Shown here: positions 29,757 through 49,898 of the stretch, piece by piece
Position numbering within the stretch: position 1 is the stretch's first letter
How the letters are laid out: each line of letters opens with the position of its first letter
DNA from: Pirellulales bacterium
Lineage (GTDB): Bacteria > Planctomycetota > Planctomycetia > Pirellulales > PALSA-1355
Direction: 5' to 3'
Length of the DNA stretch: 64,000 bases
NCBI GenBank assembly: GCA_963733035.1
Contig: CAVTBU010000005.1
Coordinates: 1,536,001 to 1,600,000, forward strand
Notes under the pieces: model-generated
Told to the model about the DNA's origin: nothing
What the model saw: the letters and a program-made list of their open reading frames with translations, nothing else
The model's database searches: none
Made by a program: the position numbers and the translations under genes

Positions 29757-31997
29757 CTACAAATCGGCGTCATAGAAATAGCTGCCGTAGCGCCCCGCAT
29801 ATTCGCTGGTAGGAATGCCGCTGATCACGACCCCAGCAACCTTCGCACCGGTGAACAGGACACGTTCCGTTGCCTTTTTCAATTGCGACTGCCGGGTCAC
29901 ATCTCGCATGGCACAGACCAGGACCGCGTCTGCGCTGCGAGCTAAGACCAGTGCCTCGCTTGCCGCCAAGACCGGCGGAGAATCAATGATCACGTAGCGG
30001 TAAGTGGCAGGGATTTCTGCAATCAGTTTCGACCAGCGTAGCTCCTCGAAAAGCTTATGTGGGTTGCTGTCCAATTCACCGGCAGGCAACACGTCGACCA
30101 ATTCGGTACGAGTTGCGACGATGGCTTCGGCGAGCGAGCTTCTGCCAGACAGAACGTCGGCGAGCCCCGGTTCGCTGGGAATCTCAAACAGACGGTGAAC
30201 GCTGGGGTCGCGTAAGTCTCCGTCAATGAGCAGCACGCGTTTCTGGGTGGCGCGGGCGATGCTTGCCGCAAGCTGAACAGCGACGCTTGTCTTGCCCTCC
30301 TTGTTGACAGCGCTGGCGATAGCCAGGATTCGTACGGACTCGGCGTTTGCTCCCAGCAGCACGCTGCTACGCAGCGCCTCGATGCTTTCCTGAAACATTT
30401 GAACGGCTCGATGCTCCCGCGGTGCCAAACGCTTGGCCTTCGAACTCCGCGTCGGCAATGCGGTAATCTCGCCGAGGACAGCCAGGTGGGCACTTTTTTC
30501 GACGTTTTCCGCCGTGCTGATCCGACCCGTCAGTTGTTCCTTCAGGACCGCCAAGCCAAACGGAGCGGCGAGTCCGGCCAGCAACGCCACCAACGCGTTC
30601 AAATAAGGTAGAGACTGAACCGGTGCTACAGGCACCTCTGCCGTTTTGCGTTCGAAGACACGACGCGGAGCGCTCTGTTCGGTTGAAAGTACAACGATGC
30701 GATCCGATATCTGGTCCAGGACATTCTCGGCCCGCTCCAGCTTGTCCTTCTCGAACATCAGCGTCACCGAATCGCCGGTGGACTGTTGAACTTTGGCCAA
30801 TTCCGCGACTCGTCGCTCTTCTAACATCGATTTAGTCAGTTGACACTTTTCAATCTCCGCCTTCAACTGTGCGATGGCCTGATGATGATCATGCAGCCGC
30901 TGCGCTTCGAGTCGAGCCTTTGTCTGCGACCGCAATTCACTCTTCCATGTTTCAAATGCCTTTTGGTTTTGCACGACGCGATCAGCCGTGCGCTGGTATT
31001 CCGAGCTGTCCTTACCTTGTGCTGCGCTGGTCAAGATGCTACTCAAGTGCAAGTTCTGATCTGCGAGGGCCTCCGCGAATTGCAGCGTTTTTGGATTTCT
31101 CTCAATCTCCGCATCAATCATCGATTCCGGGACCGCCGCGATACGCTTCAGATCCGCGGATTCAAGCGAGTGCAGTCTCTTCGTGAGCACTATCTCTTCG
31201 ACCTCGGTATTAATCAGCTGGTTGAGCAGGTCTGCCAGTGGCTTGGCTTCCGTTGCAGACGCATCGGATCCGTCTTTGAAGGGATCCCGTCCAGTGACTT
31301 GCTTCGCAATCTCGCGAACGCTCTTGCGCAACTCCTCGACCTCCTGTGAACGCCACTGAACTTCACTGCGGAGCTGATTGACGACTTCTTCCGACCGCTT
31401 CTGAAGATCGTCCTTCCGCTGTTTGAAGTATGAATCGACAATCGCATTTACCGCGCGGGCGGCTGCCTTGGGCTGCGAGCAGGTGAAGGAGACGCTGTAT
31501 AACTCAGACTCGCCGATCCGGCTGACCACGATTTGTCGGCGCAACCATTCCAACGGGTTGTCCTGTTTGTTCAATTCTGGAAGTCCGATGAGTTCCCGTT
31601 CTGCTATCACCGGACGGACGACCATCGGGCTTCGCAGCAACTCAATTTGCGTGGCAACAAAGGCTTTTGACGATGATCCTTGATCCTTGGACTCGAACGC
31701 CAGGAAGGGAACGTGCTCCTCGATTTGGATCCACGCCGAGGCCTCGTATTTCGGGACGAAAAGCCAGTACACCGTCAGGCTCGCCACCGTTCCGAGCACG
31801 ATTCCCGCTGGCAATGCCCACTTCCACCAGAATCGGATGGCATCGATGATCCGACGCGGACTGAGTCCGGTATCGGACTCAGCAGCAGGATGTACCACGC
31901 GCGGCGGACGCGTGGGTACAGAATTACGCGCGATTGGCACCAGACTTCGCGATGCTTCCTGATTCGATGGGTCGTGTTTTTGCGAGGTGTCAGTCAT
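29757..31997 (-). CDS. wzc: Wzc-like polysaccharide co-polymerase/tyrosine autokinase
   Basis: Two TM helices flanking a coiled-coil region, Walker A SAVNKEGKT, IDGDLR, IIDSPP, and a C-terminal Tyr cluster YAGRYGSYFY. Confidence 0.9.
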   Translation of the reverse strand: MTDTSQKHDPSNQEASRSLVPIARNSVPTRPPRVVHPAAESDTGLSPRRIIDAIRFWWKWALPAGIVLGTVASLTVYWLFVPKYEASAWIQIEEHVPFLAFESKDQGSSSKAFVATQIELLRSPMVVRPVIAERELIGLPELNKQDNPLEWLRRQIVVSRIGESELYSVSFTCSQPKAAARAVNAIVDSYFKQRKDDLQKRSEEVVNQLRSEVQWRSQEVEELRKSVREIAKQVTGRDPFKDGSDASATEAKPLADLLNQLINTEVEEIVLTKRLHSLESADLKRIAAVPESMIDAEIERNPKTLQFAEALADQNLHLSSILTSAAQGKDSSEYQRTADRVVQNQKAFETWKSELRSQTKARLEAQRLHDHHQAIAQLKAEIEKCQLTKSMLEERRVAELAKVQQSTGDSVTLMFEKDKLERAENVLDQISDRIVVLSTEQSAPRRVFERKTAEVPVAPVQSLPYLNALVALLAGLAAPFGLAVLKEQLTGRISTAENVEKSAHLAVLGEITALPTRSSKAKRLAPREHRAVQMFQESIEALRSSVLLGANAESVRILAIASAVNKEGKTSVAVQLAASIARATQKRVLLIDGDLRDPSVHRLFEIPSEPGLADVLSGRSSLAEAIVATRTELVDVLPAGELDSNPHKLFEELRWSKLIAEIPATYRYVIIDSPPVLAASEALVLARSADAVLVCAMRDVTRQSQLKKATERVLFTGAKVAGVVISGIPTSEYAGRYGSYFYDADL

Positions 31998-32056
31998 GGC
32001 AGTTGGCAATTACGAATGCAGCGCAAGCGACTTTACCTGACGGGCGCAGATCGAGT

Positions 32057-33049
32057 TCAAGGTTTGCTGGCACGGCTTTGCGGTTCGCTTTGCCCCAGCA
32101 GAAGGTCGGCGACGTCCATCGTTTCCCGTTCGGGGAACAGCCGGTTCAGGTACCACAACACACCGCCAAACAGGAACGCGGCCATCAGGATCATGGCGAA
32201 ACCGGCGAAATCGTGTGAGAACTTCTGTCCCGCTTCACTCGAGATGTACTGATAACACAGTCCGGTAACAACGATTCGCGCGGTGTTGGCTGCCAGCGCG
32301 ACCGGAACCACGCTTAGAAGTAACAGCGCGCGTTCCCACCACGATTTCTTGAAGAACATCAGATAGGCGACTGCCAAGGCAATGATCCCCACCAACATGC
32401 GCAAGCCCGAGCAAGCTTGCTCCACGTCGAGCCGATGAGTTCCGAGGTGGATTGTGTATCCTTCACTAATTGCCGGTTGGCCCAGACACTGGAGCGTCCA
32501 CACGCTCAGCCTGGTGGCCGCCGAACGAAGCGGCAGGCTTAGCATCTGCTCCATGCGGAAGGGGAGCGGAACCATGAAGTACAGATACAGAGCCGCCGGC
32601 AAGCTCCAGCGCGCCAGTCGCCACCCTCCAAAGGTCCACACGACTCCAACGATCCATACTGGTATCGACCACGCGTCAATCGTTGGAATGTACAGAATGG
32701 CCGCCGGGATCCGCATGGCGATGCTCAGCAGCACGAGCAACAACCCGGGCCACGCGAACTGAAGGCGGAAGTCCGGAAAGCGATCGCGAGCGTGCCACAA
32801 AAAGAAACCCGCCAGCAGCGGCACAAGAAAACCGTGCGAATAGTCGGGCACGGTGTTCCAAGTGTGGATCAGATGGGCTGTCGTTGGCCAGTATGCCCAG
32901 AAAAACAAGACCACCAGCGACAGGCCAGCGATCGCGATGGTCGTGCGCGCCTTGCGCGGCGGATTGACCGCTATTTCAGCCGGGGAATCAGGCGAAGGGC
33001 TCGCCTGCGCTCCGACGAGCGGCGACTTTTCGTACACGCTCGAGCCCAT
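32057..33049 (-). CDS. xrt: Exosortase (EpsH family)
   Basis: Multi-TM protein with YSHGFLVP and the catalytic Cys (ACSGLR), Arg (ANTARI) and His (SHDFAG). Confidence 0.93.
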   Translation of the reverse strand: MGSSVYEKSPLVGAQASPSPDSPAEIAVNPPRKARTTIAIAGLSLVVLFFWAYWPTTAHLIHTWNTVPDYSHGFLVPLLAGFFLWHARDRFPDFRLQFAWPGLLLVLLSIAMRIPAAILYIPTIDAWSIPVWIVGVVWTFGGWRLARWSLPAALYLYFMVPLPFRMEQMLSLPLRSAATRLSVWTLQCLGQPAISEGYTIHLGTHRLDVEQACSGLRMLVGIIALAVAYLMFFKKSWWERALLLLSVVPVALAANTARIVVTGLCYQYISSEAGQKFSHDFAGFAMILMAAFLFGGVLWYLNRLFPERETMDVADLLLGQSEPQSRASKP

Positions 33050-33050
33050 G

Positions 33051-33710
33051 CTAGGTGCCGTCTCCAAAGAAACGCACAAACCGCTTATACACGCGATGCG
33101 TCTTTTGCCAGAAATTCGCCCGCGTCATCTCGTCCGTTTCCAGGTAGCTGTCATCGTCGGGGGAGTCGAGCAGGTACTCGCCACAAAATTGCCGTTCGCT
33201 GGGCGATAACGTTTCCAGAAACTCGTTGAGCGAGACATCAACCTGATCATCGTCTGTCGAGTAGTGAGGAGCTCGCTGGCGAGACGCTTTCCCCTCCCGG
33301 ACCCTGCGACGAAGCTCCGAGCGAAAGTGGCGACGGACTTCGTCGCGAGCGATGGCACGCAAGAACGTAATCAGGCGTGCCCCTCTGCCTGGATCGTAGC
33401 GCGTCAAAAGTTCGCCATCGTCTGCCACGAGGGCGTACCATACCCGAGCAGTGATTTCCTCGGCCAGGTTTATATCGCTCGTGCGACCGCTCAAGAGCAC
33501 GCAAACGATTTGAACGAGCTGATGATTGCATTGGGCGTGCAATTCCTCCCACGCGTTGACTTGTCCGGCTACGCACCGCTGAGCAAGATCGCGGTCCGCG
33601 TCGACCAACCGCTTGCGAGCAGCTTCCACTTCGGCCTGCGTTTGCAATGCCTCATCTGCAGGCGGCGCCTCCAACAGTTGACTGCTCGACGGCTTTTGTC
33701 TTCGCTTCAC
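33051..33710 (-). CDS. ECF-like sigma-70 family factor with divergent region 4
   Basis: Region-2-like DRDLAQRCVAG..AWEEL, AEEITARVW and RYDPGRGARLITFLRAIAR. The region-4-like start LSPSERQ is followed by an atypical HTH. Confidence 0.65.
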   Translation of the reverse strand: MKRRQKPSSSQLLEAPPADEALQTQAEVEAARKRLVDADRDLAQRCVAGQVNAWEELHAQCNHQLVQIVCVLLSGRTSDINLAEEITARVWYALVADDGELLTRYDPGRGARLITFLRAIARDEVRRHFRSELRRRVREGKASRQRAPHYSTDDDQVDVSLNEFLETLSPSERQFCGEYLLDSPDDDSYLETDEMTRANFWQKTHRVYKRFVRFFGDGT

Positions 33711-34701: not shown

Positions 34702-34802
34702 TGACACAAAATGTCAGCACTTGTCCGCGGCGTCGGTTTTCGCAAAAAAACATCTCCACGACTTTAGAAATACTTGACATTCACCGCTGGCTCGGTTTTA
34801 AT
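34702..34802 (+). promoter_or_regulatory. Sigma70 promoter with upstream TGAC-N7-GTCA palindrome (class A)
   Basis: TTGACA (34774-79)-N17-TTTAAT (34797-802); TGACacaaaatGTCA at 34702-34716. Confidence 0.65.
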
Positions 34803-34876
34803 TTGCTTCATCGCGGTTGTCCGCGTTCAACATTGCCGATCAGCCAAGAACATTCATGCATACGGAGAAACGTCTA

Positions 34877-35257
34877 ATGCGTCGCATCTTGAGCCACTTT
34901 GCGTTTTGTTCTCTGGCGGCGGCAATCGTCTTCTCGGCTGCCACGGCACGAGCTGAAAGTATCTCGTTTGCCGACGGATACGAGGGCAGCGTAAACGCGG
35001 CAGCCGATGAAGCGTTGACCAGCGAATCCGCTGTTGAAGCTTCGACGCTTGTCAGCGACAAATCTCTGGACGCTGAATTCACATTTACCAGCCCTTCATC
35101 GGCGAGCGAAGTTGCCTCGTCGCAGTCAGTGAATCTGACGCCGGTCGGCATTATGGTCGCCACCTCGGCCACGGCCACCGTCCCGGAGCCAGCAACTCTG
35201 GTATTGCTTGGCCTTGGTTTTCTGGGCGTACTGGTTGCCCGTAGGCGAAGTCGCTGA
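34877..35257 (+). CDS. PEP-CTERM protein 1 (short, Ser/Ala/Thr-rich; non-Trp tail)
   Basis: Signal peptide ending ARA; tail VPEPATLVLLGLGFLGVLVARRRSR; GGAGA ribosome-binding site. Confidence 0.9.
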   Translation: MRRILSHFAFCSLAAAIVFSAATARAESISFADGYEGSVNAAADEALTSESAVEASTLVSDKSLDAEFTFTSPSSASEVASSQSVNLTPVGIMVATSATATVPEPATLVLLGLGFLGVLVARRRSR

Positions 35258-35315
35258 TTCATTTGCTGATCGCAACAAATACGTTGAACCGTGCAAACCA
35301 GTTTGCACTGCAAAT

Positions 35316-35339
35316 AGGACTGCTCGCCAGTCCTTTTTT
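35316..35339 (+). terminator. Rho-independent terminator
   Basis: AGGACTG-ctcgc-CAGTCCT followed by TTTTT. Confidence 0.7.
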
Positions 35340-35584
35340 GCGCGCCCGCCCTTCGAATGCACATACGCCCTGCGGCAACAGTTAATGCTTTTGATTTGAG
35401 CGGCCATTCATCCGACCGACTTGACTCTTGCAGGAACCTCGTCCAGCAGCGATGCTGAAAAACCGTGGGCATCGAGCGTCGCAAACCGTACCGCTCGACT
35501 AGGTCTGACAGGTCGCGGTTTCAAGATCAACCGGTGACGTGTCTTCCCGGTGTGCGGCAGCCGGCGCGGTTGGAGAGTCATGTG

Positions 35585-36694
35585 ATGCGGCAAAGCATGC
35601 TAGTTTTGACAATCTGCTGTATCGCGGCCAACCTATCTCAAGCCAGCGTCGCGGTCGTGACGAACCGCACGGACAGGACCGTGTCGTTTCGCTTGGCTAC
35701 CGAGGACGCGGATACCTCGCGCAATGCCGAGCAAGTGATCGAGCAAGGGGATTGCTTGCCGATCCCGCTGTCGGGCCAGGCACAGTTGTCGATCGTTTCG
35801 GGTGGAAAGCGCAAGCAATACCGCGTGAATCCTACCGCCATGTACTACTTCTATTTGAACAGCGCCGGGGAAATTGACTTCAGTCAGATCGGGTTGCAGG
35901 AGCCGCCTGGTGCCAACGTTGCTCCCATCGTCGCTGCTCGGGTAGCTGGCGCACCATTGACTCCCAGGAAATCGGGATCGGTCGTAATCCCGGTCAAGAT
36001 CCTGTATGACGATGCCGAGGTGTTGACTCGCAAAGCGTGGGAAGCTCGCATGCGGAGACGATTTGAAGAAGTCTCGCGCATTTTCCGGAAGCACTGTTTC
36101 GTTGAATTTCAAATCGTCGCGGTTGACAGCTGGCAGCGGCCAACCGCTGTGCAGGCACTGTTACCTACCATGGAGGAGTTTGAGAAGGCCGTTGATCCGG
36201 CGCCTGCGCAGGTGGCAATCGGATTCCTGGGACAGCCAATCAAAAAGAGGCCTGAAGATGGTCACCTCGGTGGCACGCGGGGACCGCTGAGCACGCACGT
36301 GTTAGTTCGTGAGTGGGTCAACGAAAACACGGAGCGGGAATGCTTGGAACTCCTGGTGCACGAACTGGGCCACTTCCTCGGTGCCGTTCATAGCCCCGAA
36401 GTCAATTCGGTCATGCGGCCAAATCTCGGGGACCGCTATGCGCGATCTCCATATTTTCGGATCGTTTTCGACCCGCTAAACACATTGGCCATGTGCCTGG
36501 TCAGTCAAGAACTGGCTGCCAATCGAACGCTTCGATTCGCGCAGCTAAGCCCTTGGACCAAGTTGGAATTGAAGGCGATCTACTACAACCTGGATCGCGC
36601 GAATCCCAAAGATCCAGCCGCAGGCAGCTATTTGCGCGCCTTGGGGGATATCTCTCCCCGACGAACCGGTCCGGACCCGATCCTGGGAGAATAG
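35585..36694 (+). CDS. Secreted metzincin zinc metalloprotease (M10/M12-like)
   Basis: Signal peptide; HELGHFLGAVH (HExxHxxGxxH) and Met-turn SVMRP. Confidence 0.82.
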   Translation: MRQSMLVLTICCIAANLSQASVAVVTNRTDRTVSFRLATEDADTSRNAEQVIEQGDCLPIPLSGQAQLSIVSGGKRKQYRVNPTAMYYFYLNSAGEIDFSQIGLQEPPGANVAPIVAARVAGAPLTPRKSGSVVIPVKILYDDAEVLTRKAWEARMRRRFEEVSRIFRKHCFVEFQIVAVDSWQRPTAVQALLPTMEEFEKAVDPAPAQVAIGFLGQPIKKRPEDGHLGGTRGPLSTHVLVREWVNENTERECLELLVHELGHFLGAVHSPEVNSVMRPNLGDRYARSPYFRIVFDPLNTLAMCLVSQELAANRTLRFAQLSPWTKLELKAIYYNLDRANPKDPAAGSYLRALGDISPRRTGPDPILGE

Positions 36695-36883
36695 AGATAC
36701 CGGCAATCGCGCATCGGTCGAGCATGGAAAATCATCGGGAGTGACCCGGCTAAGATGCGGGCGATCACGCTTGGGTTTTCAGCAGGCTGCCAACCGGTCA
36801 CCGGACCGCCCCAGTCGCGCGTGTTCCGACTCACAGTATGCTGCGCCACGGGGAGCGGAATGCACGCTCGTACCCGATCGCAA

Positions 36884-37780
36884 TTAGGCCCGCGGTCCGG
36901 ACACGGCATCCAAAATGGCTTGGCGCGTATCGCTTGACCAGCGTCCCTGCGCAACTTCCCGGCGTCGACGTCCCACGGTCAATCCGGCCGCACCTCCGGC
37001 CAGTAATGACCACACAACAAGGCTTGCCGGCTCGGGCACGGCGGCGCCCACCTGTGCGTCGGCAACAATGACCCCGTAGGCTTGGTCCTGATTGAGCGGG
37101 TTTGTCAATGCCCAGACCGTCGCGTTCGGCGATGCACTACCCAGGTTGCTTAAGAAAAACTGCGCCTCCGCCAGCATGTTCGCGGCAGCGCCCGTGGGCG
37201 TGTTTGTAACTCGCAAATTGCCCGTGCTGAAGCTGGAAGAAGCACCGTCGTATACTAACTTCCAGAGCGCGATCTGGTAGGCACCCGCCCACTCTCGACG
37301 GTCTTGAGTCGTCAGATTTGGATCGCTGAGGATCATCTGCGGATCCGGGTAAAAATTTGAAAAGAGCGCAGTAATTTCTCCCGCGATTGTCGCGTCGATT
37401 TGAGCTCCCGGATTGGGGGCACCGACTAAACCAGCGACCGTCCAACTCTGCAAGTGCCCCCAGTACACATCTTGCACGACTTCGATGCACGAAGTGTAAA
37501 AGTTGTCGACCGGGCTGCCGTTTACCGCAGCGTTGGTCCAATAAAGTAGCCCGCCCTGATCCGAGCCCCAGGTCGTGCTTGTAGGGCTCCCGTTGTTGTA
37601 GAGCCGAAAGTTTACTCCGGAGACGCCCAGGATCGAACCGTTCTGCGTCAGGTATCCCTGGACTTGATCATTTAATTGCAGGTCCAACGCCGCCATCAGC
37701 TGATGCCCGTTGCCGAGCACTACGGCGACAGCCAGGGAGGCTAGAATCGTGCGAGCAAGACTCTGTAACTTCATGGACAT
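36884..37780 (-). CDS. PEP-CTERM protein 2 (Trp tail; thioester-domain-like motifs)
   Basis: Signal peptide; FYTSCIE ... AYQIALW; tail VPEPASLVVWSLL...RRRR plus a C-terminal extension. Confidence 0.9.
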   Translation of the reverse strand: MSMKLQSLARTILASLAVAVVLGNGHQLMAALDLQLNDQVQGYLTQNGSILGVSGVNFRLYNNGSPTSTTWGSDQGGLLYWTNAAVNGSPVDNFYTSCIEVVQDVYWGHLQSWTVAGLVGAPNPGAQIDATIAGEITALFSNFYPDPQMILSDPNLTTQDRREWAGAYQIALWKLVYDGASSSFSTGNLRVTNTPTGAAANMLAEAQFFLSNLGSASPNATVWALTNPLNQDQAYGVIVADAQVGAAVPEPASLVVWSLLAGGAAGLTVGRRRREVAQGRWSSDTRQAILDAVSGPRA

Positions 37781-37848
37781 AACAATCTCTATCTCAGGCT
37801 GTGATTCTTGATGCGGGGAAGATCGTGTTATCGCTTTTATCTACCCTC

Positions 37849-37883
37849 CTATAGACCGCCACACGATTTTCCTGACAAAAAAA
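37849..37883 (-). promoter_or_regulatory. Class B motif (candidate alternative-sigma promoter)
   Basis: TTTTTTTGTCAGG...TCTATAG; spacer from GTCA to CTATA is 18 bp. Confidence 0.6.
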
Positions 37884-38074
37884 CCTCCCAATTTACCAAT
37901 TCGGCGCGGCGAGGGATTCTTAAATCAGGACGTCGGACACGGCTTGTCCGCTCCTGCGGCCAGAATTGACCATGAGAAAGCTGAAGGTCGCGAGTGACTG
38001 GAATCGGCGCTGCTCAGATTTGCGAGCTCGGCGAGAAAGGCAGATGGGAGCTTGAGCCCGTTTTCGTGGTGAGT

Positions 38075-38746
38075 TCAGCCCTGAGACTTCTTGCGGCGCC
38101 AACCGATGCCCATTGCAAGGGAACTTAGCAAAGTCCACACGATCAGGCTGGTGGGCTCAGGAACCGCAGCTGTTCCCGACATTTCGACCCGCAGCGCCGA
38201 TGGATTGGCGTTGCCGCTATTGTCACCAGGAGCGGAGCCACCGTTGTGAATTACGAATTCCAAGGTGTTCAATCCTGACACGAAGCCACTGGTAATCGTG
38301 AACGGGGCGAATCCCGAACTGAATTGCGTAAACGAGGTGGCGACAGTACCGATCGAAACACCGTTTATTTTGATGTCCACGCCATCGTTGTCGCTTGACC
38401 AGGCACCACTGATACTAGCCGTCGACGGATTGAGGCCGGTCAAATCGAACGTCGTTTCATAGACGTAATTTCCTGGAGGGGAGTTCAGGTCCGGGTCGTT
38501 GTTTGGGCCAATCCAACGGGACAACGAATTATCGCCCAAGTAGGGCGGGATTGGAAAGTTGCTCGCGGACGTTATGACTCGAATGTCGGTGGATCCACTG
38601 GGCACCGACGTCAAAGTGTAATGTGGGTCCCCAATCGTGCCGTCGGGCAGGACGGCTCCAGAAGCATCGACGCCTGTGTTGAACAAGGTCGTAATGATGG
38701 CTCCCTGGGCGTGTCCGACTTCGAAGGCCAACACGATTCCAAGCAT
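38075..38746 (-). CDS. PEP-CTERM protein 3 (Trp tail; beta-rich domain)
   Basis: Tail VPEPTSLIVWTLL...WRRKK. An out-of-frame ATG at 38765 with an RBS may be the true start. Confidence 0.9.
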   Translation of the reverse strand: MLGIVLAFEVGHAQGAIITTLFNTGVDASGAVLPDGTIGDPHYTLTSVPSGSTDIRVITSASNFPIPPYLGDNSLSRWIGPNNDPDLNSPPGNYVYETTFDLTGLNPSTASISGAWSSDNDGVDIKINGVSIGTVATSFTQFSSGFAPFTITSGFVSGLNTLEFVIHNGGSAPGDNSGNANPSALRVEMSGTAAVPEPTSLIVWTLLSSLAMGIGWRRKKSQG

Positions 38747-38875
38747 GCCGACAGATCCGTTTCATTTTCCAGTCCCTTGACGAGTCGAGGCGGTTCCGCA
38801 GGCGAAAGCTAAAGTCGTCGCGACGCGGGTTCCACGAAATGGGTCCATAGGTCCATATCCATACTTTCAGTTTCT

Positions 38876-38909
38876 ATTAGGTTCGCCAAGCATGGTATCC
38901 TGACACAAA
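38876..38909 (-). promoter_or_regulatory. Class B motif
   Basis: TTTGTGTCAGG...CCTAATAG; spacer 20 bp. Confidence 0.5.
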
Positions 38910-38991
38910 CCTCGAAAAAATAGTTATTCACCAGGGAATGCCATGTAGATTCATTAAGCGTCGAGTACGATTTCAAGAGCCAAATGACAGC

Positions 38992-39140
38992 AGCCGGAGC
39001 AGACCAGAGTGCGCCCCGGCTCAGTGGATTCGCTCGGCGACCAATTCCTAAGCAGCTCGTTTGCGTCGTCGCCAGCAACCAGCGCCGCCCAGGACTAACC
39101 CGAGGAGGGACCAAACAACGAGGCTGCCGGGTTCGGGAAC
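38992..39140 (-). repeat. PEP-CTERM tail plus terminator cassette, copy 1
   Basis: Collinear nucleotide similarity with 40291-40439, extending about 55 bp past the stop and including a hairpin. Confidence 0.8.
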
Positions 39141-39800
39141 CGAAGCTGATAGGAACTCTGCTCGAAGACCCGTCGGATTGCCGCTTCCGCCAGATGCGTT
39201 TGTCACTCGGAACTCTAAGGTATTTGCCCCAGCTACCAAGCCAACTGAAGAATTCAGTTCAAAATTCGTCCAAGTTCCAAAACCCAACGATGACGGCAAA
39301 ACTAGATTCCCATTCAAGAATAGCTGCCCCGAGTTGTCAGTTGCCCAATGCCCGTCAACCACCAAGTAGGAACCTGGCGCCGTGAACGTAAGCGAGTAGG
39401 TGTAAAGCCCCGCAGGAGCCGTCGACGGCCATATTCCACTGCCTGAATTTGCAAACTGGGTCGGAGTAATCCAGCTGGAACCACTTGACCCGGGAGCGTC
39501 ATTGGCAAGCCAATGACCATAAGCTGGGTTCGTCGTTGAGACACCCGAATTAGGCGGGGCTGCCGTTGTTGTTAGCGTGTAGTGCGTATCGAAAGCAACT
39601 GGAGCTAAGACTTTGTCGGCGGAGTCGGTGCCCGTGTTATAGAGGCCAATGCTCGGCAATGAAATTGCGGCCGATGCGTTCCCTGGCAGGCAGGTTGAAA
39701 CAGCGCCAGCGATCGCTAGAAATGCCAAGCCCCGATTTCCGAACAGCAAAAAGTCTTTATAACACATAGCCCACGTTTCCTTGTAGGTTGTTCGATTCAT
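39048..39800 (-). CDS. PEP-CTERM protein 4 (Trp tail; paralog of protein 3)
   Basis: LYNTG, HYTL, SWI, DN, LEF.V.N and NP.GLR.E are shared with 38075-38746; tail VPEPGSLVVWSLL...WRRRKR. Confidence 0.9.
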   Translation of the reverse strand: MNRTTYKETWAMCYKDFLLFGNRGLAFLAIAGAVSTCLPGNASAAISLPSIGLYNTGTDSADKVLAPVAFDTHYTLTTTAAPPNSGVSTTNPAYGHWLANDAPGSSGSSWITPTQFANSGSGIWPSTAPAGLYTYSLTFTAPGSYLVVDGHWATDNSGQLFLNGNLVLPSSLGFGTWTNFELNSSVGLVAGANTLEFRVTNASGGSGNPTGLRAEFLSASVPEPGSLVVWSLLGLVLGGAGCWRRRKRAA

Positions 39801-39982
39801 GTTGCTCTATGATATCGCTAAAACCCTGCTTCATTATCGGGGCGATTCGTAGGCCACTCTTTTGCCGTCGTAGCCACACCAACCGGCCCCACCGATAGTC
39901 ATGATCTCGCGTAGCGACCAGCACACTGCCGCTTATCTATCGCAGCTTTGTGGCGGCCTTAAACCGGCCCAACGCTACAAGC

Positions 39983-40014
39983 TTTAGGCCGGCAAACCCG
40001 GGAACCTGACAAAA
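39983..40014 (-). promoter_or_regulatory. Class B motif
   Basis: TTTTGTCAGG...GGCCTAAAG; spacer 19 bp. Confidence 0.55.
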
Positions 40015-40182
40015 GATTGGCCTTTCTGCGATCATATCCATCAGAGATTGGCAAGGCGTCCGAGCAGCGACTTGGCGAAACGACTGCCCGGCGAGGAAAA
40101 AGTGCACTAGGACGCGAAAACCGGGCGAAAAGCGATTCGGCAGTAGCGACCAGTCCGCTCGGCAATCCATTGTTCCAAAGGT

Positions 40183-40199
40183 CTGACAGTTTCTGTCAG
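40183..40199. promoter_or_regulatory. Perfect palindrome CTGACAG-TTT-CTGTCAG (TGAC-N7-GTCA operator candidate)
   Basis: Read directly; same half-site spacing as the class A palindromes. Confidence 0.55.
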
Positions 40200-40290
40200 G
40201 CCGAACGCAACCGATTGCTCTTAGAGTTGTGTTCGATCGGAGTACCATTTTACTGCAAGCGCTCGCTTTGCCAGAAGACGGAAACAGAAA

Positions 40291-40439
40291 AGCCGGAGCA
40301 GAACAAAGTCTGCCCCGGCTCATTGGATTCGCTCCGCGGCCAATTCCTAAACCGCTCGTTTGCGTCGTCGCCAGAAGCCGGCGCTGCCAATTGCCAAGCC
40401 GAGCATGGACCACACGACCAAGCTTGCCGGTTCGGGAAC
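40291..40439 (-). repeat. PEP-CTERM tail plus terminator cassette, copy 2
   Basis: Homologous to 38992-39140; minus-strand hairpin AGCCGGGGCAGA...TCTGCTCCGGCT followed by TTT. Confidence 0.8.
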
Positions 40440-40931
40440 AATCGACGCGTTTAGTGCTTCGGCCGTTGGAGTTGGCGATGCCCCGTTAGTGAAAGTCCAG
40501 TTATGTCCGCTCCAACTGGCGAGTGCGGAATCGACCAAGGTGCTACCCCGGTACGCGAACAGGTTGACCGAAAGGGGAGTGCTACTGGATCCGATGAACC
40601 AAAGATTGAAAGTGATATTCGTGGTTAGAGGTCCCTGTGCGATGCCCAGCGTACGATTGAGACCAACGCCAGCGGTGGGCTGGTCCGTCCAGCCAGCGAC
40701 TGAAATACTTCGAAATACCTGCGCTTCAAGCGGCCCGCCGGAGACGATTTGGGCGGCTATCATGTCGAAAGTTCCAACTCCACTCTCATTGATACCCTGG
40801 CCCCAACTGTTTCCCTCTATTGGGTCGCCAATTGCCGTGATCGAAGCTGAAGATTGCGAGATACCGACGGTGAGGATTAGCGCCACCGTTGTAAATCGCA
40901 CAATTCGCACGAAAAGATCGCTCGTTCGCAT
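40347..40931 (-). CDS. PEP-CTERM protein 5 (Trp tail)
   Basis: ATG at 40931, signal peptide ending SSA, tail VPEPASLVVWSML...WRRRKR. Confidence 0.9.
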   Translation of the reverse strand: MRTSDLFVRIVRFTTVALILTVGISQSSASITAIGDPIEGNSWGQGINESGVGTFDMIAAQIVSGGPLEAQVFRSISVAGWTDQPTAGVGLNRTLGIAQGPLTTNITFNLWFIGSSSTPLSVNLFAYRGSTLVDSALASWSGHNWTFTNGASPTPTAEALNASIVPEPASLVVWSMLGLAIGSAGFWRRRKRAV

Positions 40932-40987
40932 TACATCGCTCCGGCGGTGTGTCTCTTGAATGTGCTGGAAGACTTTTTCTAACTGTA

Positions 40988-41023
40988 TATAGGCCGACGG
41001 CGGACGATCACTGACAAAGAAAA
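40988..41023 (-). promoter_or_regulatory. Class B motif
   Basis: TTTTCTTTGTCAG...GGCCTATAT; spacer 19 bp. Confidence 0.6.
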
Positions 41024-41540
41024 TCGCAACGGCTAGATCGAGGATTCGCCCCGGAAGAAGGCACCGTTGACACGAATTGACATGGTCCTGTGACGCTACC
41101 GCACACGCTCGTCCTGTTGACCTAACGTTGAGAACGGGCAAAAATCGTAACGGTTGAAGTCGTAGCATCACGAGCGACCGCGTGATCGACTCGCTGGTCG
41201 AATTACTCGCCGATGCGTGGCAGGCTCCAGCAAATTCGCAGCGGCAACGGTCCGGAGTCTATCGCCGTCTTGATTCGTCGCTGGCTCGGCCGAGGTGGAC
41301 GTTGAGCGCTGCACATCATGCTGCTGGGAAGGCCGCTGTCCAGGGCCGTCTCGATAGCTGCCCGGAATCTTGCGCCCGAGTTTTGCGCCGTCGGTCGACG
41401 GCAATTCCTGGCATCATTCGTGCCAGTCACCGCCTCAGCCTTGGCCCCCCCTTGACGGCGGCAATATACCGATGCTGCGCTGACCCCTGGCTGCCACCTT
41501 ATGACCTTCACCAGGAGCCGATCCGGCCTTACCGGATGCC

Positions 41541-42407
41541 TTAGTTGAAATAGCCGATTCCACAGACCAAGGGCCCCTGCTTACGCGTGCCCCTCGTGCA
41601 AAATCCAAGTGCTTCATCAACACGTGCTACTTCGGCTTCGTACCGGTTTTGTTGCTGCGACGCGCAGAGGTAACCCAGCAAACTCAGGCTTCCGAAACTG
41701 AGCAGCATAATCGAAGACGGCTCCGGAACGATTTGAGCCAGTCCGGTGAGCACAGCGATATCCCCGCCGCCAGAAAGCGAGAATCCTAGGGTCAGTGACA
41801 TGTTCATCCAAGCACCCACGGGACCCGCCTGGGGGCCTGCCGTGTAGGAGCCGTACGTGTAGAAAGCACCAGGGGACGCGGCGCCATGTGCGTTGGCCGG
41901 GCCAACGTCGACACCCATGTTTGTCAACGGAAGTGACAAGTCAGCAATTTGAATGTTTGGGCCAAGAGTCGGCGTAATGGAAACGCCGTTTCCGTTCACA
42001 TCGTTCAAGGCACCCGCGATCGAGGCATTCACGCTGTTCGCCGTTGGTGGAAATGCGATCGGCGTTGAGAAAAAGAATCCAAAAGCGCTGGGCGCTCCCA
42101 AATCTTGCACCGAGATTCCGTAGCTGATTTGTGGATCAGGATCGAGCTCGCCACTAATGCTTGCCGAGAATTCGCTATTCGAAAGATCGACACCAGAAAA
42201 CTGATTTGTATTCGGGTCGAACGTTCCCGCGCCCCAGTGGCCGCTGCCGGGATCGAATGCCAGCGGAATCACAAAGTCCTGCCCGTCGACCGACAGAGTT
42301 GCACTGGGTGTCACTTGAACTGGCACCGCTTGGCTGGCGCTGGACCCCAGAACAAGCGCAAAGATGAAAGCCATGCAAACGACGAGAAGTCGATTTCGTA
42401 GTGACAT
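41541..42407 (-). CDS. PEP-CTERM protein 6 (non-Trp tail; probable frameshift in the basic tail, true stop probably 41627)
   Basis: Signal peptide; VPEPSSIMLLSFGSLSLLGY. Removing one base gives the basic tail ARRSNKTGTKPK*. Confidence 0.85.
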   Translation of the reverse strand: MSLRNRLLVVCMAFIFALVLGSSASQAVPVQVTPSATLSVDGQDFVIPLAFDPGSGHWGAGTFDPNTNQFSGVDLSNSEFSASISGELDPDPQISYGISVQDLGAPSAFGFFFSTPIAFPPTANSVNASIAGALNDVNGNGVSITPTLGPNIQIADLSLPLTNMGVDVGPANAHGAASPGAFYTYGSYTAGPQAGPVGAWMNMSLTLGFSLSGGGDIAVLTGLAQIVPEPSSIMLLSFGSLSLLGYLCASQQQNRYEAEVARVDEALGFCTRGTRKQGPLVCGIGYFN

Positions 42408-42594
42408 CACGAGCTGCTCTCCATTGCACCTTGTCTCGCCGCGACGAGCCAAGCTGGTCGGTTAATCTCAGCGTAAAGGACAAGAACACGGCCTACAACT
42501 GCGACAACTGGTTCAGCGTTTTCCTTGCGGCTTATATGCGGCAGCAAGCTATCCGCACAGACGCGAAAAACGAAAAACGTTCGCAACCAGCGGT

Positions 42595-42668
42595 AGCCTA
42601 GCAATCCAGTCGACAACCGTCAATCAAAATCAAAAGAAATCGCGAACTTATGATGACAGATGCCGTCA
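42595..42668 (-). promoter_or_regulatory. Class A: sigma70 promoter plus TGAC-N7-GTCA palindrome
   Basis: TTGACG (42623-18)-N17-TAGGCT (42600-595); palindrome at 42654-42668, 30 bp upstream of the -35. Confidence 0.72.
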
Positions 42669-42945
42669 TAGTAGCGTCGCAATTCGGTACTCAACTCGCG
42701 TGGCCGGCATCCCCGTGCCGCGCGGTGACATGGTCCATTGAACTTGGTGCTGGATATTCAGACTTGGCAGTCTACCTTCCGCCTATCACATTTAAGCTGC
42801 CGGTATGCGATCCTTGATAGCCGTGCAGCAAGAGGCTCAGAAAGCGATGCGATTGACGGGACAACAGACAGCGAATCGAAATAAGTCGGCCAGGGCAAAA
42901 CCTGGTGTTTGATCGAGACCGATCGCAGTTGTCTAGCCGGCCGTT

Positions 42946-43710
42946 CTACGCGATGCGCTTTCTTCGTCGGAATACCAGCAGGGCGAGCATGCCGAATAAC
43001 GCCAGCGCGATGCTGGTGGGCTCCGGGACGATAATTCCGAGCGATCCAGTGCCGGCGACATTGCCGGTACCAGCAGCGTGAAAGCCGGTGAGGTAGCCGC
43101 CGGCCGAGGTGACGCCCGTCAGGTTGGCGCTGGACATCGCGATCGTGATCGGCTGCGAGGGATCCCATTCCAAGTTGAACGGCAAATTCTGCGCGAACAG
43201 ATCGGTGGCGAAGCCGGCCACGGAGATCGCGATCTGGTTGCCCGTGTAGAAGAACTGCATGGTGTCGATGTTGAGTGCCAGACCCCAGCCAGGGGTCTGG
43301 TTTTCGGTCAGCAGATCGACGCCAAAAGCACCACCGTTGCCGGCGCTGTTGACGATGCTGCCGCCCGCCGCCGGAATGTTGAGCACGTCTTTGATGTAGA
43401 TGTCCGCAAAGACGTCGGTCGTTTCGGTTCCGACCAGCGTGCCGTCGAGGTAAAAGTTCATCGACGTCAGGGCATCGGACTGGGCCGGGTCGCCGATGCC
43501 CAGCGTATTGTGCGTCCCGGCATCGAAAATACTCGTACCGTCGTAATCGAGATTGAGACCGGTGAACTGGACCTCAAGCGTGCCGGCGCTGGCAGGACGG
43601 AAAGACAACAGAATCAGCGCGCATGCAGCGAAGCTCAAGCCAAGCTTCGCAAAACAACAATTCTTTCGCAGCACAGCAAGCCGCAAAGAGACATGATTCT
43701 TGGCATGCAT
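42946..43710 (-). CDS. PEP-CTERM protein 7 (non-Trp tail)
   Basis: Signal peptide ending ASA; tail VPEPTSIALALFGMLALLVFRRRKRIA. Confidence 0.9.
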   Translation of the reverse strand: MHAKNHVSLRLAVLRKNCCFAKLGLSFAACALILLSFRPASAGTLEVQFTGLNLDYDGTSIFDAGTHNTLGIGDPAQSDALTSMNFYLDGTLVGTETTDVFADIYIKDVLNIPAAGGSIVNSAGNGGAFGVDLLTENQTPGWGLALNIDTMQFFYTGNQIAISVAGFATDLFAQNLPFNLEWDPSQPITIAMSSANLTGVTSAGGYLTGFHAAGTGNVAGTGSLGIIVPEPTSIALALFGMLALLVFRRRKRIA

Positions 43711-43775
43711 GAAGCTACTCCAAAGTGGCTCAGCAAAGTGTTCGCGCGGACGCAGCGATGTTGACAACGAGCAGT

Positions 43776-43849
43776 AGCCTAAGTTCCCCCAGAGTGATTG
43801 TCAACCAAATTCAACAGAAATCGCGAACAAAGTGTGACAGGCATCGTCA
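43776..43849 (-). promoter_or_regulatory. Class A: sigma70 promoter plus TGAC-N7-GTCA palindrome
   Basis: TTGACA (43804-799)-N17-TAGGCT (43781-76); palindrome at 43835-43849, 30 bp upstream of the -35. Confidence 0.75.
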
Positions 43850-44156
43850 TAGTTCAGTGGCGTTACTGATTTGACGCTTGCGCGGCTCGATCCATCCAAT
43901 TCCTTTTGGACCTCAGGCCAGGCATTGCTTTCACTCCTCTCGCCGGCTTTTATCGGCCCGGAAGAAAGCCAAATCGCCACACTGCGATTTCGTTTCGAAC
44001 TACTCAAAAACCGCAAAATCACGGCATGTCATCAGTCGGTAATTTCCTTTCTGCACGCGAAGACGCGCACCGGAGGTTAACAAAACGAAAAGCTTTGTGC
44101 ACGAAGCCTTTATGTGAAAGGATATCGGCATCAGTCAGGTCTCCCCGAATTGCAGA

Positions 44157-44191
44157 TTTTTTGTCAGGCGGGCCTCATCGGGGGCCTATAG
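44157..44191 (+). promoter_or_regulatory. Class B motif
   Basis: TTTTTTGTCAGG...GGCCTATAG; spacer 19 bp. Confidence 0.6.
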
Positions 44192-44240
44192 AGGGTTAAG
44201 AAGCATTGTATGGAGTCCAACATCCGGCTGGGAGCCGACT

Positions 44241-44804
44241 TTGAAACCGCATATTTTCGCTCTCTGGGCGTTTGCGATCGTGGGCAGTACTTGCTGCCGA
44301 GCGGCGATTGTGCCGCTTTCGGGCGGCCCGGTGCGGATAGCGCTCGTTGACGTGACGTCCATCTCAGGCTCAGAGAATGCTGGGTCGGCGCTTGCCAATG
44401 CGACGCTCGTTGATATTTTTTATGCCGAAGCGTCACAAGGCGAGGCGCAACTCACCGCGGGCATGCAGGTGTGGGTGTACAATAATTTCGGTCAGCAGGT
44501 TGGCACCGGCATCATCGTTCCCCGCCCAGACACACATGACGAGCGGAACCAGTTGGGTATCTTCGGCAAGTCCCCCTTGCCCAGCAGTTACTTCGAAAGT
44601 TTCCTGAGTTTGCTGACCTCGGCCGCTCCCGCGACAGGCGGTTCTGCCCCGCAGAGCCCGTTGATTGCTGCCGGTCCGTATGCGATTTCGGCCACGCCAC
44701 TCGCTGCTACCGTGCCAGAACCGGGCAGCTTGATGATCTGGTCTTCTCTGATCGCGAGCATCGGCGTGTTGAGCGCCCTAGTCCGCCGCCGACTTCGCCG
44801 CTGA
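44241..44804 (+). CDS. PEP-CTERM protein 8 (Trp tail)
   Basis: TTG start after GGAG; signal peptide; tail VPEPGSLMIWSSL...RRRLRR. Confidence 0.85.
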   Translation: MKPHIFALWAFAIVGSTCCRAAIVPLSGGPVRIALVDVTSISGSENAGSALANATLVDIFYAEASQGEAQLTAGMQVWVYNNFGQQVGTGIIVPRPDTHDERNQLGIFGKSPLPSSYFESFLSLLTSAAPATGGSAPQSPLIAAGPYAISATPLAATVPEPGSLMIWSSLIASIGVLSALVRRRLRR

Positions 44805-44864
44805 AATCAGCATCGGCTTGCCGTGAACTGAAAGAAGCCAGCCGTTTGGCGGTTTCGCGCTCCG

Positions 44865-45428
44865 TGGCCGTCGCTTCGCTGGTGGTCTTGGCCTGCCGGA
44901 TGCCGAGGATCTGGGCGATGACACGGCTCACTTCGGCCGGCGGGTAGAACTGTCCCTTGCTCTTGCCACTTTCGGTGGCGAAGTGCCACATCAGGTACTC
45001 GTAAGCGTCGCCCAGAATATCGTCGCCTTCGGCGCGATTTTTGGAGAAGTCGAGGACCTTGTTCTCGAAGATAGCGATCAGGTTGGTGAGCCGATCGACC
45101 ATCTCCTTCCCGCTACCCAGTTTCGTGGCATCGTTAAAGTCCGGCACGTTGGACAGCTGATTGGCCGCGGCCAGAGGGGCGATGATCTTCTTGTTGATCT
45201 GGTCGCCAATGTCGCTTCTTGCCCTTGAGCGCCACCATGTCCTTGAAACTGGCCCCTTTCGGGATCGTGATCGGGGCATACGGCTGGCCTGCGTACTTAT
45301 CGCTGATGTACTTCACGAACAACAGCACCAGCAAATAGTCCTTGTACTGGCTGGCGTCCATGCCCCCGCGCAGCTCATCGCACGAAGCCCAAAGATGAAG
45401 AGTAAAGCTCGGATTTCTTCAGGGCCAT
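44865..45428 (-). pseudogene. hsdM: Truncated, frameshifted type I R-M methyltransferase N-terminus
   Basis: MALKKSELYS / LWASCDELRGGMDASQYKDY...ILGDAYEYLM.HFATESGKSKGQFY. Two frameshifts; ends before the SAM-binding motif. Confidence 0.88.
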
Positions 45429-46165
45429 TGAGCGGGCTTTCCTGGCTAGGGATGGAGGAGACCACCTAGTTTAGCGGCCAAACAGGCGGGGAAATAGTGA
45501 TCGAAGGAGTGACGGCGAGCGGGCCCCTAAGAAGTCCTCCAGTTCGCCGCGATTTTCAAATCTCGGGCTCGTATTGATGTCGTATTTTCGACGTTCAAGC
45601 GCGATGTGAGTCGTGCCAGCGCCGTGCAACGACTGTCTGACGCGGACCAGTCTGGCTCGATCAGCCGCTGGTAAAATGCGCAAGAGAGACAGCTCCGAGC
45701 CACGCTAGACAAGTGGTGGAACATGCAGTCATATGGATTTTCGGGCTGGATTTACATGCTGGATCAGAGGAGGCGCGCGAAATTTGACTTTGAGAGTGCG
45801 CGGTCGTTAGATTGGCATTTGTGTCGAGAAATGACCGGTTTCGGCCTAACATATCCGGCGTTGCTCGTCATGGGATAGCCGCGTCTTATCGCGACCGCGA
45901 TAGGCACGGTTCCGTCGAGTTTTTGGTTAGACGTATCCAGAGCACTGCCGACGAGAGGCCTGAATACGTTACGGCTGTTGATTGACCGCGTATCACCTTG
46001 TGGTGACAAACACCAAGAAACTCCGACCGAAGCTGCAGTAGAGATAATCCAGAGCGCCGCTGATACCAAGGGGCCTGGACGAGTTGCGACGGCATTTCGC
46101 CTGCGCAGTTCGCCCAGGCCCCTTTTTTTTGATAAAGCCACCTTCACCACCTAGGAGACGATTAG

Positions 46166-46444
46166 ATGAACCAATCCGCCAATGAAACGCAGATTTCGCT
46201 AAATGAAACGCAGGCGTCGCTCCTCGACGTCAAAGCCCTTGCGAAACTGCTTCACTGTTCACCCAGGCACATACGTCGGCTGGTCGAGTTGGGTCGGATG
46301 CCGAAGCCAGTTCGCCTCGGTACTCTTGTTCGGTGGCCAAGGCCGGCGATTGAAGCCTGGATCGGCGAAGGATGCGAGCCGGTCCGAAAAGCCAATCCGA
46401 AAAGCACCAAGGTATCGGACGTCAATAAATCGACTGCGACATGA
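46166..46444 (+). CDS. AlpA/excisionase-like HTH protein
   Basis: LLDVKALAKLL..SPRHIRRL...GRMPKPVRLG.LVRW....IEAWI. Confidence 0.85.
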   Translation: MNQSANETQISLNETQASLLDVKALAKLLHCSPRHIRRLVELGRMPKPVRLGTLVRWPRPAIEAWIGEGCEPVRKANPKSTKVSDVNKSTAT

Positions 46445-46519
46445 CATCTACTGCCGCTTACCGTGTTGTTCGCGAATTACAAGGACCGTTAATTCAATCC
46501 AGGAAAGGAGTCCGCTGCT

Positions 46520-49426: not shown

Positions 49427-49607
49427 GTTGGCGTAAAGGTAATTCACTACGAGCACAAGGGTTAGTCGCTCTCACTCTATCAGTATTCCAAGGTTCCAGA
49501 TATTCCACGATGAAAGACTCCATTCGACTGATCAGGACGATCTCGACGCGTGAGAAAATCAGAGGAGAACTGTTGTACTGGTATGTTGGAATCTGGGAAT
49601 GCTGAAC
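49400..49607. repeat. Clustered (T)GGAAY short repeats; candidate replication origin
   Basis: Three groups: forward 49400-49424, reverse 49485-49507, forward 49587-49607. Confidence 0.5.
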
Positions 49608-49700
49608 AGCAAGAGTATTGACGTGTACTGCGACGAGTTTTTTATTGCGAGACTACTTGACACGATCGGAGGAGTGGGATAAAAATCTCACTAGGGCAAG

Positions 49701-49895: not shown

Positions 49896-49898
49896 ACT

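Follow-up and report, generated by a model that had tools for sequence, protein, structure and literature searches.

A bipartite upstream motif as the likely promoter of an ECF-like sigma regulon serving a single exosortase-substrate class in a Pirellulales bacterium

Proteobacterial PEP-CTERM genes share an upstream PrsR site (motif 1) and a sigma-54 −24/−12 promoter, together with PrsK, PrsR and PrsT; the distance to the start codon averages 71 nucleotides (nt), and further motifs outside the Proteobacteria remained to be found (Haft et al. 2006, PMC1569441, in the part of that paper available to us). A second point of comparison comes from sigma factors of the extracytoplasmic function (ECF) type: the accessible portion of the supplement to Casas-Pastor et al. 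2021 (PMC7826278) gives the ECF41 promoter as TGTCACA ... CGTC and that of ECF37 as TGTCAACC ... CGTT. Here we describe a bipartite motif, TGTCAG followed after a spacer by CTAWW, that stands before five PEP-CTERM genes within positions 1536001-1600000 of contig C5 of a Pirellulales bacterium (genome 6.65 Mb, 10 contigs, 60% G+C); this 64-kb stretch is referred to below as the window. The motif is real, specific to one PEP-CTERM subclass and conserved across many planctomycete genomes. It is likely to act as promoter in a dedicated regulon of one exosortase-substrate class under an ECF-like sigma, with a divergent sigma-like protein encoded at 33051-33710 as the candidate reader; we infer the promoter role, the assignment of the boxes and the reading by this protein from sequence.

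As far as the available part of Haft et al. 2006 goes, the arrangement resembles the PrsK/PrsR sigma-54 system in that one motif is common to the long upstream regions of many PEP-CTERM genes, most of them units of a single gene, in that the distribution of the motif follows a dedicated regulator encoded near an exosortase, and in the distance to the start codon, which is 71 nt on average there and, from the end of the downstream box, 50-182 nt across the five window sites. It differs in that no GG-N10-GC promoter is present, the regulator would be a sigma-70-family ECF-like protein and not an enhancer-binding protein, and the motif marks one tail subclass only. No protein of the genome reaches the PrsR cut-off (best TIGR02915 score 396 bits, against 502.6). 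With ECF41 and ECF37, as given in the supplement portion cited, the locus would share a bipartite promoter whose −35 element begins TGTCA, a small two-domain sigma and a small local regulon. In contrast to these groups, its putative −10 box is CCTAWAG and not CGTC or CGTT, its protein falls under the Pfam and NCBIfam sigma cut-offs, and its genomic context is one of exosortase and PEP-CTERM genes. The word "exosortase" does not occur in the main text of PMC7826278, where one word begins with "pep", and neither "exosortase" nor "PEP-CTERM" occurs in the part of its supplement that was covered. Likewise, no exosortase-linked ECF sigma is described in the titles and abstract openings of the matches listed, a coverage with subscription journals outside it.

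The pattern TGTCAG-N15-19-CTAWW has 5 matches in the window, compared with a mean of 0.15 and a maximum of 1 in dinucleotide shuffles, and none of 100 such shuffles reaches five. All five sites are sense-oriented and lie upstream of open reading frames (ORFs) with PEP-CTERM-like tails:

37850..37877, minus strand: motif site 1, TGTCAGG-N16-CTATA with a T-run before it, ending 68 nt ahead of the ATG at 37780
38876..38905, minus strand: motif site 2, TGTCAGG-N18-CTAAT, ending 130 nt ahead of the ATG at 38746
39983..40011, minus strand: motif site 3, TGTCAGG-N17-CTAAA, ending 182 nt ahead of the ATG at 39800
40988..41016, minus strand: motif site 4, TGTCAGT-N17-CTATA, ending 56 nt ahead of the ATG at 40931
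44162..44190, plus strand: motif site 5, TGTCAGG-N17-CTATA, ending 50 nt ahead of the TTG at 44241

A preliminary description of this DNA had placed such a motif before these same five genes, with 18, 20, 19, 19 and 19 nt between GTCA and CTAWW and a downstream box lacking the sigma-70 pattern TAnnnT. The sites bear this out in every respect: they lie where it put them, far above the shuffled level, the spacer lengths are as given, and the downstream hexamers read TATAGG, TAATAG, TAAAGC, TATATA and TATAGA, none of which fits TAnnnT. It had also called the spacers unrelated in sequence, and this stands in part. An alignment of the five upstream regions with MAFFT contains 12 invariant columns, of which seven fall in T.TGTCAG, two are G's before the −10 box and three are scattered upstream; since no conserved run extends beyond T.TGTCAG and the stretch just before CTAWW, a long or extended repeat is argued against. 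The spacer is nevertheless partly constrained: in most sites CTAWW is preceded by GGC, or more widely by sGCGGC, and TGTCA tends to be trailed by GGAAT.

The geometry, with 16-18 nt between hexamers, and the base composition lead us to read TGTCAGG as a putative −35 element and CCTAWAG as a putative −10 element. A weakly kept TAGA lies about 7-9 nt past the second box; it carries little information in the pooled sites and could mark the transcription start. A scan for sigma-70-type consensus promoters found 5 matches where 2.9 were expected, none of them at the five motif sites. The sigma-54-type pattern TGGCAC-N5-TTGCW, with up to 2 mismatches, gave 33 matches against 34.06 expected, and none in the roughly 200 nt that precede each of the five start codons. 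Two other readings of the spacer were set aside. A hairpin (CCGCC-CTTC-GGCGG) could form in the sites of some relatives and not in most, and GGAAT as the true −35 box would leave no more than about 14 nt to CTATA and shows weak conservation in this genome, so that TGTCAGG is preferred.

The genes behind the five sites encode the following proteins:

36884..37780, minus strand: regulon gene 1, 298 amino acids (aa), with signal peptide, variant PEP-CTERM anchor VPEPASLVVWSLL.. and, in addition, a conserved cytoplasmic tail RRRR..GRWSSDTRQAILDAV
38075..38746, minus strand: regulon gene 2, 223 aa, tail VPEPTSLIVWTLL..WRRKK
39048..39800, minus strand: regulon gene 3, 250 aa, tail VPEPGSLVVWSLLG..WRRRKRAA
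40347..40931, minus strand: regulon gene 4, 194 aa from the ATG at 40931, tail VPEPASLVVWSMLG..WRRRKRAV
44241..44804, plus strand: regulon gene 5, 187 aa, tail VPEPGSLMIWSSL..RRRLRR

The succession of PEP, hydrophobic helix and basic cluster is visible by eye in all five. The Pfam model PF07589 scores three of them at 13.8-16.2 bits, under its cut-off of 20.7, and does not match the other two, while TIGR02595 matches none; on these grounds the five proteins represent a divergent tail subclass. They belong to an array of eight PEP-CTERM-type genes at 34.8-44.8 kb, beyond the sigma-like ORF, and the remaining three members (34817-35257, 41541-42407 and 42946-43767) have no upstream motif. That the motif marks PEP-CTERM genes, as first described, therefore holds for the five genes and has to be narrowed to one subclass.

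Several features of the array stand apart from the motif. The two motif-free genes that start near 42407 and 43767 share another upstream module of about 80 nt (42600-42690 and 43775-43850, both minus), CTATGACG..CTGTCA..TTCGCGATTTCT.TTGA.TTTG.TTGAC-N17/18-TAGGCTAC, whose 11-nt core occurs with its context at only these two places in the genome; by its sequence the module looks like a sigma-70-type promoter. The protein of 41541-42407 (minus) has VPEPSS and a hydrophobic helix, no basic cluster, and a 40-residue extension (..CASQQQNRYEAEVARVDEALGF..) as an atypical anchor end. Regulon genes 3 and 4 are almost the same at their 3' ends and in the DNA that follows, a strong hairpin included (38984-39060 and 40290-40360), and differ in the remainder, which suggests a recent duplication or gene conversion of the segment comprising anchor and terminator. 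The terminator-like hairpin downstream of gene 4, at 40321-40290, has 13 pairs.

A weight matrix trained on the five window sites only was run over the whole 6.6-Mb genome and returned 8 further matches of at least 20 bits. Five of the eight lie at most 200 nt before PEP-CTERM ORFs (C7:176525, C5:1507113, C4:5037, C5:1523280 and C4:11230, given as contig and position). At C5:2313522 (plus) the site is followed by a decayed gene fragment (..HAGSPPNATNDNGYTADGGGFETPSGL..), with a PEP-CTERM ORF 384 nt downstream; the fragment resembles the N-terminus of the regulon gene on C7 and looks like a pseudogene relic of a regulon member. The other two (C5:1494926 and C5:1529268) have no evident gene. The second of these orphans (C5:1529234-1529262, minus, TTGTCAGG..GGCCTAAAT, 20 bits) has no ORF of at least 100 aa within 600 nt downstream and could be a relic or belong to a non-coding transcript or small gene. 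At C5:1497744 another PEP-CTERM gene is preceded by a degenerate site, AGTCAGT..GGCCTATAG. In total, 13 sites were accepted, two degenerate ones counted, with the consensus TTGTCAGG-N14-GGCCTATAG.

About 100 ORFs of the genome have PEP-CTERM-like ends, and the motif is almost never found before the roughly 90 ordinary ones. The genes that carry it have a common anchor, VPEPxS(L/I)(V/I)VWSLLG..G.AG.WRRRKRA. A profile of this variant anchor has 11 matches in the genome, namely 10 intact genes and one 43-aa fragment, and the motif lies upstream of 10/10 of the intact genes. The enrichment before PEP-CTERM genes foreseen in the preliminary description is thus found genome-wide, concentrated before the variant-tail genes.

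The candidate reader and its neighbours lie on the near side of the array:

33051..33710, minus strand: divergent ECF-like sigma, 219 aa, last helix ..ANFWQKTHRVYKRF.. (W type), the proposed reader of the motif
32057..33079, minus strand: exosortase (TIGR02602, 152 bits; cut-off 105.55), immediately downstream of the sigma gene, with the two ORFs overlapping or abutting
29757..32009, minus strand: polysaccharide chain-length/tyrosine autokinase gene, in the same cluster as the exosortase

Of 48 database relatives of the sigma-like protein, 47 have no precomputed Pfam domain, and most of the named ones are called "hypothetical protein". An AlphaFold model built on six orthologues has a mean predicted local distance difference test score (pLDDT) of 74.7, with residues 21-140 mostly at 78-92. 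It shows two helical domains and a disordered linker at 146-158, which over 219 aa fits an ECF factor without region 1.1 or 3, at about 200 aa. In a Foldseek search of the PDB, ECF sigmas (sigmaE, SigK, AlgU, SigH, CnrH and SigW) come first, followed by other sigma factors, with a best E-value of 3.7e-3. The sigma-2 half aligns with isolated sigma-2 structures (SigC 2o7g; sigmaE 2map and 4lup) at TM-scores of 0.77-0.79, root-mean-square deviations of 2.3-2.8 and a probability of 1.00, while full-length ECF structures align over 170-200 columns at low TM-scores of 0.25-0.35. Hence the sigma-2 domain, sub-cut-off by sequence, is recovered by the predicted fold. The motifs LSPSER.F and N.WQ..HR..K are conserved among the homologues, in an arrangement that we take to be like that of sigma regions 4.1 and 4.2. 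On this model the product would be a divergent ECF-like sigma, in which region 4 is recognised tentatively.

The genome encodes two exosortases, and no named Xrt subtype reaches its cut-off for the one in the window. Of the 75 loci described below, 35 have an exosortase orthologue (43-59% identity) at a distance of up to about 3 kb from the sigma homologue, in every case more similar to the exosortase of the window than to the other one of the genome; a homologue of the tyrosine kinase is likewise present in 35/75. The exosortase beside the sigma gene presumably processes the variant-tail subclass.

Conservation was assessed in 75 loci around sigma homologues from a species-level genome collection, nearly all of them metagenome-assembled genomes (MAGs) of Planctomycetota, and in an order-wide sample of 201 genomes, this one counted; related genomes are not independent, and the counts are descriptive. 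One of the loci, L089, comes from an isolate, Anatilimnocola sp. NA78. Sigma homologues were found in 5 of the 40 nearest relatives and in 32/201 genomes of the order. With a matrix from this genome's 13 sites, a scan of the 75 loci (1.12 Mb) gave 29 sites at or above 15 bits, where ten block shuffles gave 1-8, and 19 at or above 20 bits, where they gave 0-1. The motif is thus more frequent than in shuffled DNA both in the window and in the relatives' loci. Of 30 raw matches, 20 stand immediately before PEP-CTERM ORFs and one before a sigma paralogue. Furthermore, 18/27 variant-tail ORFs score above the 99th percentile of 1664 control ORFs, as do 6/31 other PEP-CTERM ORFs. Motif-bearing loci span several families and have sigma homologues 34-57% identical to the window's; the family-wide consensus is a T-rich tract followed by TTGTCAGGAATCG-N5-TCGGCGGCCTATAGG. 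Two congeners, with sigma homologues 56% identical, carry the degenerate versions GGCATACA, GGCCAATA and GCCCTAAT.

In the two congener loci L043 (8811, minus) and L044 (8782, minus), the motif (21.1 bits) precedes a homologue of the M10-like metalloprotease gene at 35465-36694 of the window, which itself has no motif in this genome. Regulon membership hence varies between close relatives.

The variant-anchor profile matches 30/32 sigma-positive and 53/169 sigma-negative genomes, and the latter count rules out that the variant tail is confined to genomes bearing the sigma. In five sigma-negative genomes with variant-tail genes (G023, G028, G032, G058 and G078) the motif was found before 0/17 scorable PEP-CTERM ORFs, the highest score being 9.3, and several of these ORFs have, by eye, TTGAC..TAnAAT-like promoters. 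With a strict pattern (at most 2 mismatches), 25 matches were found in the 31 other sigma-positive genomes, 15 of which have at least one, compared with 44 matches in the 169 sigma-negative genomes (39/169 with at least one), the latter being of the same order as in a reversed-pattern control. Several of the sigma-positive matches are at most a few kb away from the sigma gene (G187, G188, G178 and G002).

A further association emerged when the loci were rescanned with the AGG of TGTCAGG neutral in the matrix, which gave 48 sites of at least 13 bits. Twenty-one of them read TGTCAGG, all in loci whose sigma has a last helix with N-x-W-Q. Three read T(G/C)TCACG (L076, L077 and L079), all in N-A-R-Q loci, and the strongest remaining site is TGTCCCA in L060 (27.6 bits), whose sigma has N-A-R-K; the other 23 carry assorted triplets at 13-18 bits and were treated as background. 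L108 (N-R-R-Q) has TGTCACG before its PEP-CTERM gene. The W type therefore pairs with TGTCAGG and the R type with TGTCACG, a co-variation of W/R with G/C that would be predicted if region 4 read the −35 box directly. It should also be noted that the sigma homologues of L077 (6990-7030) and L079 (1000-1020), which belong to two different MAGs, are broken by a run of 9-13 G; the last helix (..SANARQLTHRIRKKL..) resumes in another frame and is readable only after a frame change, and the run is either a homopolymer assembly error or a slippage-prone on/off tract.

Taken together, the predicted fold, the linkage, the recurrence across loci, the sigma-negative genomes and the co-variation support the earlier proposal that the boxes are the −35 and −10 elements of an ECF-type sigma, possibly that of 33051-33710. 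In the proposed mechanism, the −35 element would be TTGTCAGG and the −10 element GGCCTAWAG, with about 17 nt between them and a T-rich tract upstream, and the sigma encoded beside the exosortase would be their reader. The regulon would consist of single-gene units, each under its own promoter, whose products would be secreted proteins with the anchor VPEPxSLVVWSLLG...WRRRKR and substrates of the neighbouring exosortase. Activation of the sigma would then switch on the whole surface-protein set together.

A number of observations weigh against this proposal. At the level of the protein, Sigma70_r2 (PF04542) scores 18.3 bits against a cut-off of 24 and TIGR02937 16.9 against 42.9, no region-4 model of Pfam or NCBIfam matches, and the helices of the region-4 part (170-181, 187-191 and 197-215) are modelled at low confidence (pLDDT 42-77). 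The motif is missing upstream of the sigma's own gene (best score −0.1 bits), and no copy accompanies the exosortase or the rest of the polysaccharide cluster in this genome; a site stands before the sigma gene in 1/75 loci only (L100, 34.9 bits). The autoregulation that is common, though not universal, among ECF sigmas is hence not seen here. Only 17/75 sigma loci have a site of at least 15 bits. The exact pattern TGTCAGK-N13-15-GGNCTAWW occurs 9 times in this genome and twice in one unrelated genome, and the other 39 relatives, sigma-bearing congeners included, have no match; since the congeners carry degenerate versions, the exact pattern is too strict for its zero matches to be evidence of absence. 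In other genomes the spacer is partly conserved as AATCG-N5-TCGGCGG, a constraint beyond the need of a plain −35/−10 pair, so that a second factor could bind there. In one genome, G211, a good site, a variant-tail gene and a tail protein (see below) are present but no sigma homologue was detected; its assembly has 290 contigs, and the site-bearing contig is 5.9 kb. Finally, the co-varying loci are few and related, and may represent perhaps 2-3 independent changes.

Some of these observations would be expected if the motif were the operator of a DNA-binding activator or repressor, with the housekeeping or another holoenzyme doing the transcription. The conserved spacer of other genomes (GGAATCG-N5-TCGGCGG) makes about 38 bp constrained rather than two hexamers, and the sigma gene itself lacks the motif. 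On the other hand, the two boxes are dissimilar and form neither a palindrome nor a direct repeat, a normal state for promoters but an unusual one for the sites of dimeric regulators; none of the five sites coincides with a sigma-70-like hexamer pair; and the downstream box is A/T-rich in a genome of 60% G+C, at 50-182 nt ahead of the start codons. The co-variation of the −35 box with a residue of the sigma's last helix also speaks against an operator, and no other conserved regulator gene was noticed in the loci, without a systematic search. We regard an operator as unlikely. That the motif is the promoter of a different alternative sigma, with 33051-33710 linked to it by neighbourhood only, appears quite improbable: weak ECF-like matches do occur throughout these genomes, and G211 has the motif without a detected homologue, but sites cluster within a few kb of sigma homologues in many unrelated assemblies, the motif is unseen before like-tailed genes in the five genomes where the sigma was not found, and the change from W to R in the helix tracks that from G to C in the −35 box.

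The sites might also be relics of duplication, copies of promoter and gene that have not yet diverged and are under no special constraint. Their genes do lie in a tandem array, genes 3 and 4 share the 3' ends described above, and the site at C5:2313528 is trailed by a decayed paralogue fragment. Nevertheless, flanks, spacers and coding regions have diverged past recognition while the two boxes are nearly invariant; the same boxes recur in loci of several families with sigmas 34-57% identical; and 19 sites of at least 20 bits stand against 0-1 in shuffles. Such conservation across genomes contradicts a mere duplication relic, which we consider very improbable indeed, and it upholds the earlier judgement that functional constraint rather than simple duplication maintains the motif.

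Two regulon members, the gene at 36884-37780 and its paralogue at C5:1523370-1524317, encode about 25 extra cytoplasmic residues past the basic cluster. The end of the window protein reads VPEP..TM..RRRR-x-GRWSxExRxAIxxIV, and the extension GRWSxExRxAIxxIV is conserved in 12 sequences, with W34, R39 and I42 invariant. Genes for such tail proteins occur in 12/75 loci, directly downstream of the sigma gene in L063, L069, L079 and L093, and carry the motif (9 sites). Clean full-length matches to the tail were found in 7/201 genomes, six of them sigma-positive (G000, G002, G003, G082, G187 and G204) and the seventh being G211; the sigma-positive G178 has a partial match at a contig edge. A tblastn search of the 75 loci with the window tail protein gave no match at 1e-5, which indicates that only the anchor and the tail are conserved and the outer domain is not. 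No anti-sigma factor was identified beside the sigma gene, whose downstream neighbour is the exosortase. In placement and behaviour the tail proteins are as a sigma's partner would be expected to be, save for the reversed membrane topology and the exosortase cleavage site. By this association, the tail-bearing PEP-CTERM protein might be the membrane-bound partner of the sigma, an anti-sigma of reversed topology that is processed by the exosortase, though we hold the idea to be doubtful. Cleavage of the anchor by the exosortase would then play the part of a site-1 cut, and what becomes of the helix and tail left behind would set the activity of the sigma.

Profile searches of the window proteins place an exopolysaccharide cluster at 3-33 kb. 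It contains two polysaccharide deacetylases (one with DUF3473), glycosyltransferases, a Wzy-like protein, a 1481-aa TPR protein, the tyrosine autokinase and the exosortase, and an IS4/IS5-family transposase (DUF4096 and DDE_Tnp_1; 13342-14163, minus) sits within it. An Rfam scan of 33000-46000 of the window, with E-values up to 0.1, matched no family. Directly past the PEP-CTERM array lies a mobile-element remnant (44707-51557), made up of:

44707-45279: truncated N6 DNA methylase
46166-46444: HTH_17 excisionase-like gene
46520-49426: 968-aa ORF without a Pfam match
49899-51557: phage-type integrase

In the available part of Haft et al. 2006 (PMC1569441), the control of exosortase substrates outside the Proteobacteria is an open point. 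The present finding offers a defined promoter, as we propose it, a candidate sigma from a family of mostly "hypothetical" proteins, and a target set that corresponds to one anchor subclass, in a system that recurs in many Pirellulales- and Thermoguttaceae-type genomes. The system would most likely be a dedicated alternative-sigma regulon for exosortase substrates, which would parallel the proteobacterial sigma-54/PrsR circuit. The co-variation of W/R with G/C provides a compact prediction that can be tested in a heterologous reporter, and an orthogonal sigma-promoter pair is the type of part collected by ECF toolboxes, as far as the portion of that literature available to us indicates. The two exosortases of the genome may serve different anchor subclasses, one of them under its own transcriptional switch, and if the tail-bearing protein were indeed the partner of the sigma, transcription of the exosortase substrates would be coupled to the sorting reaction itself.

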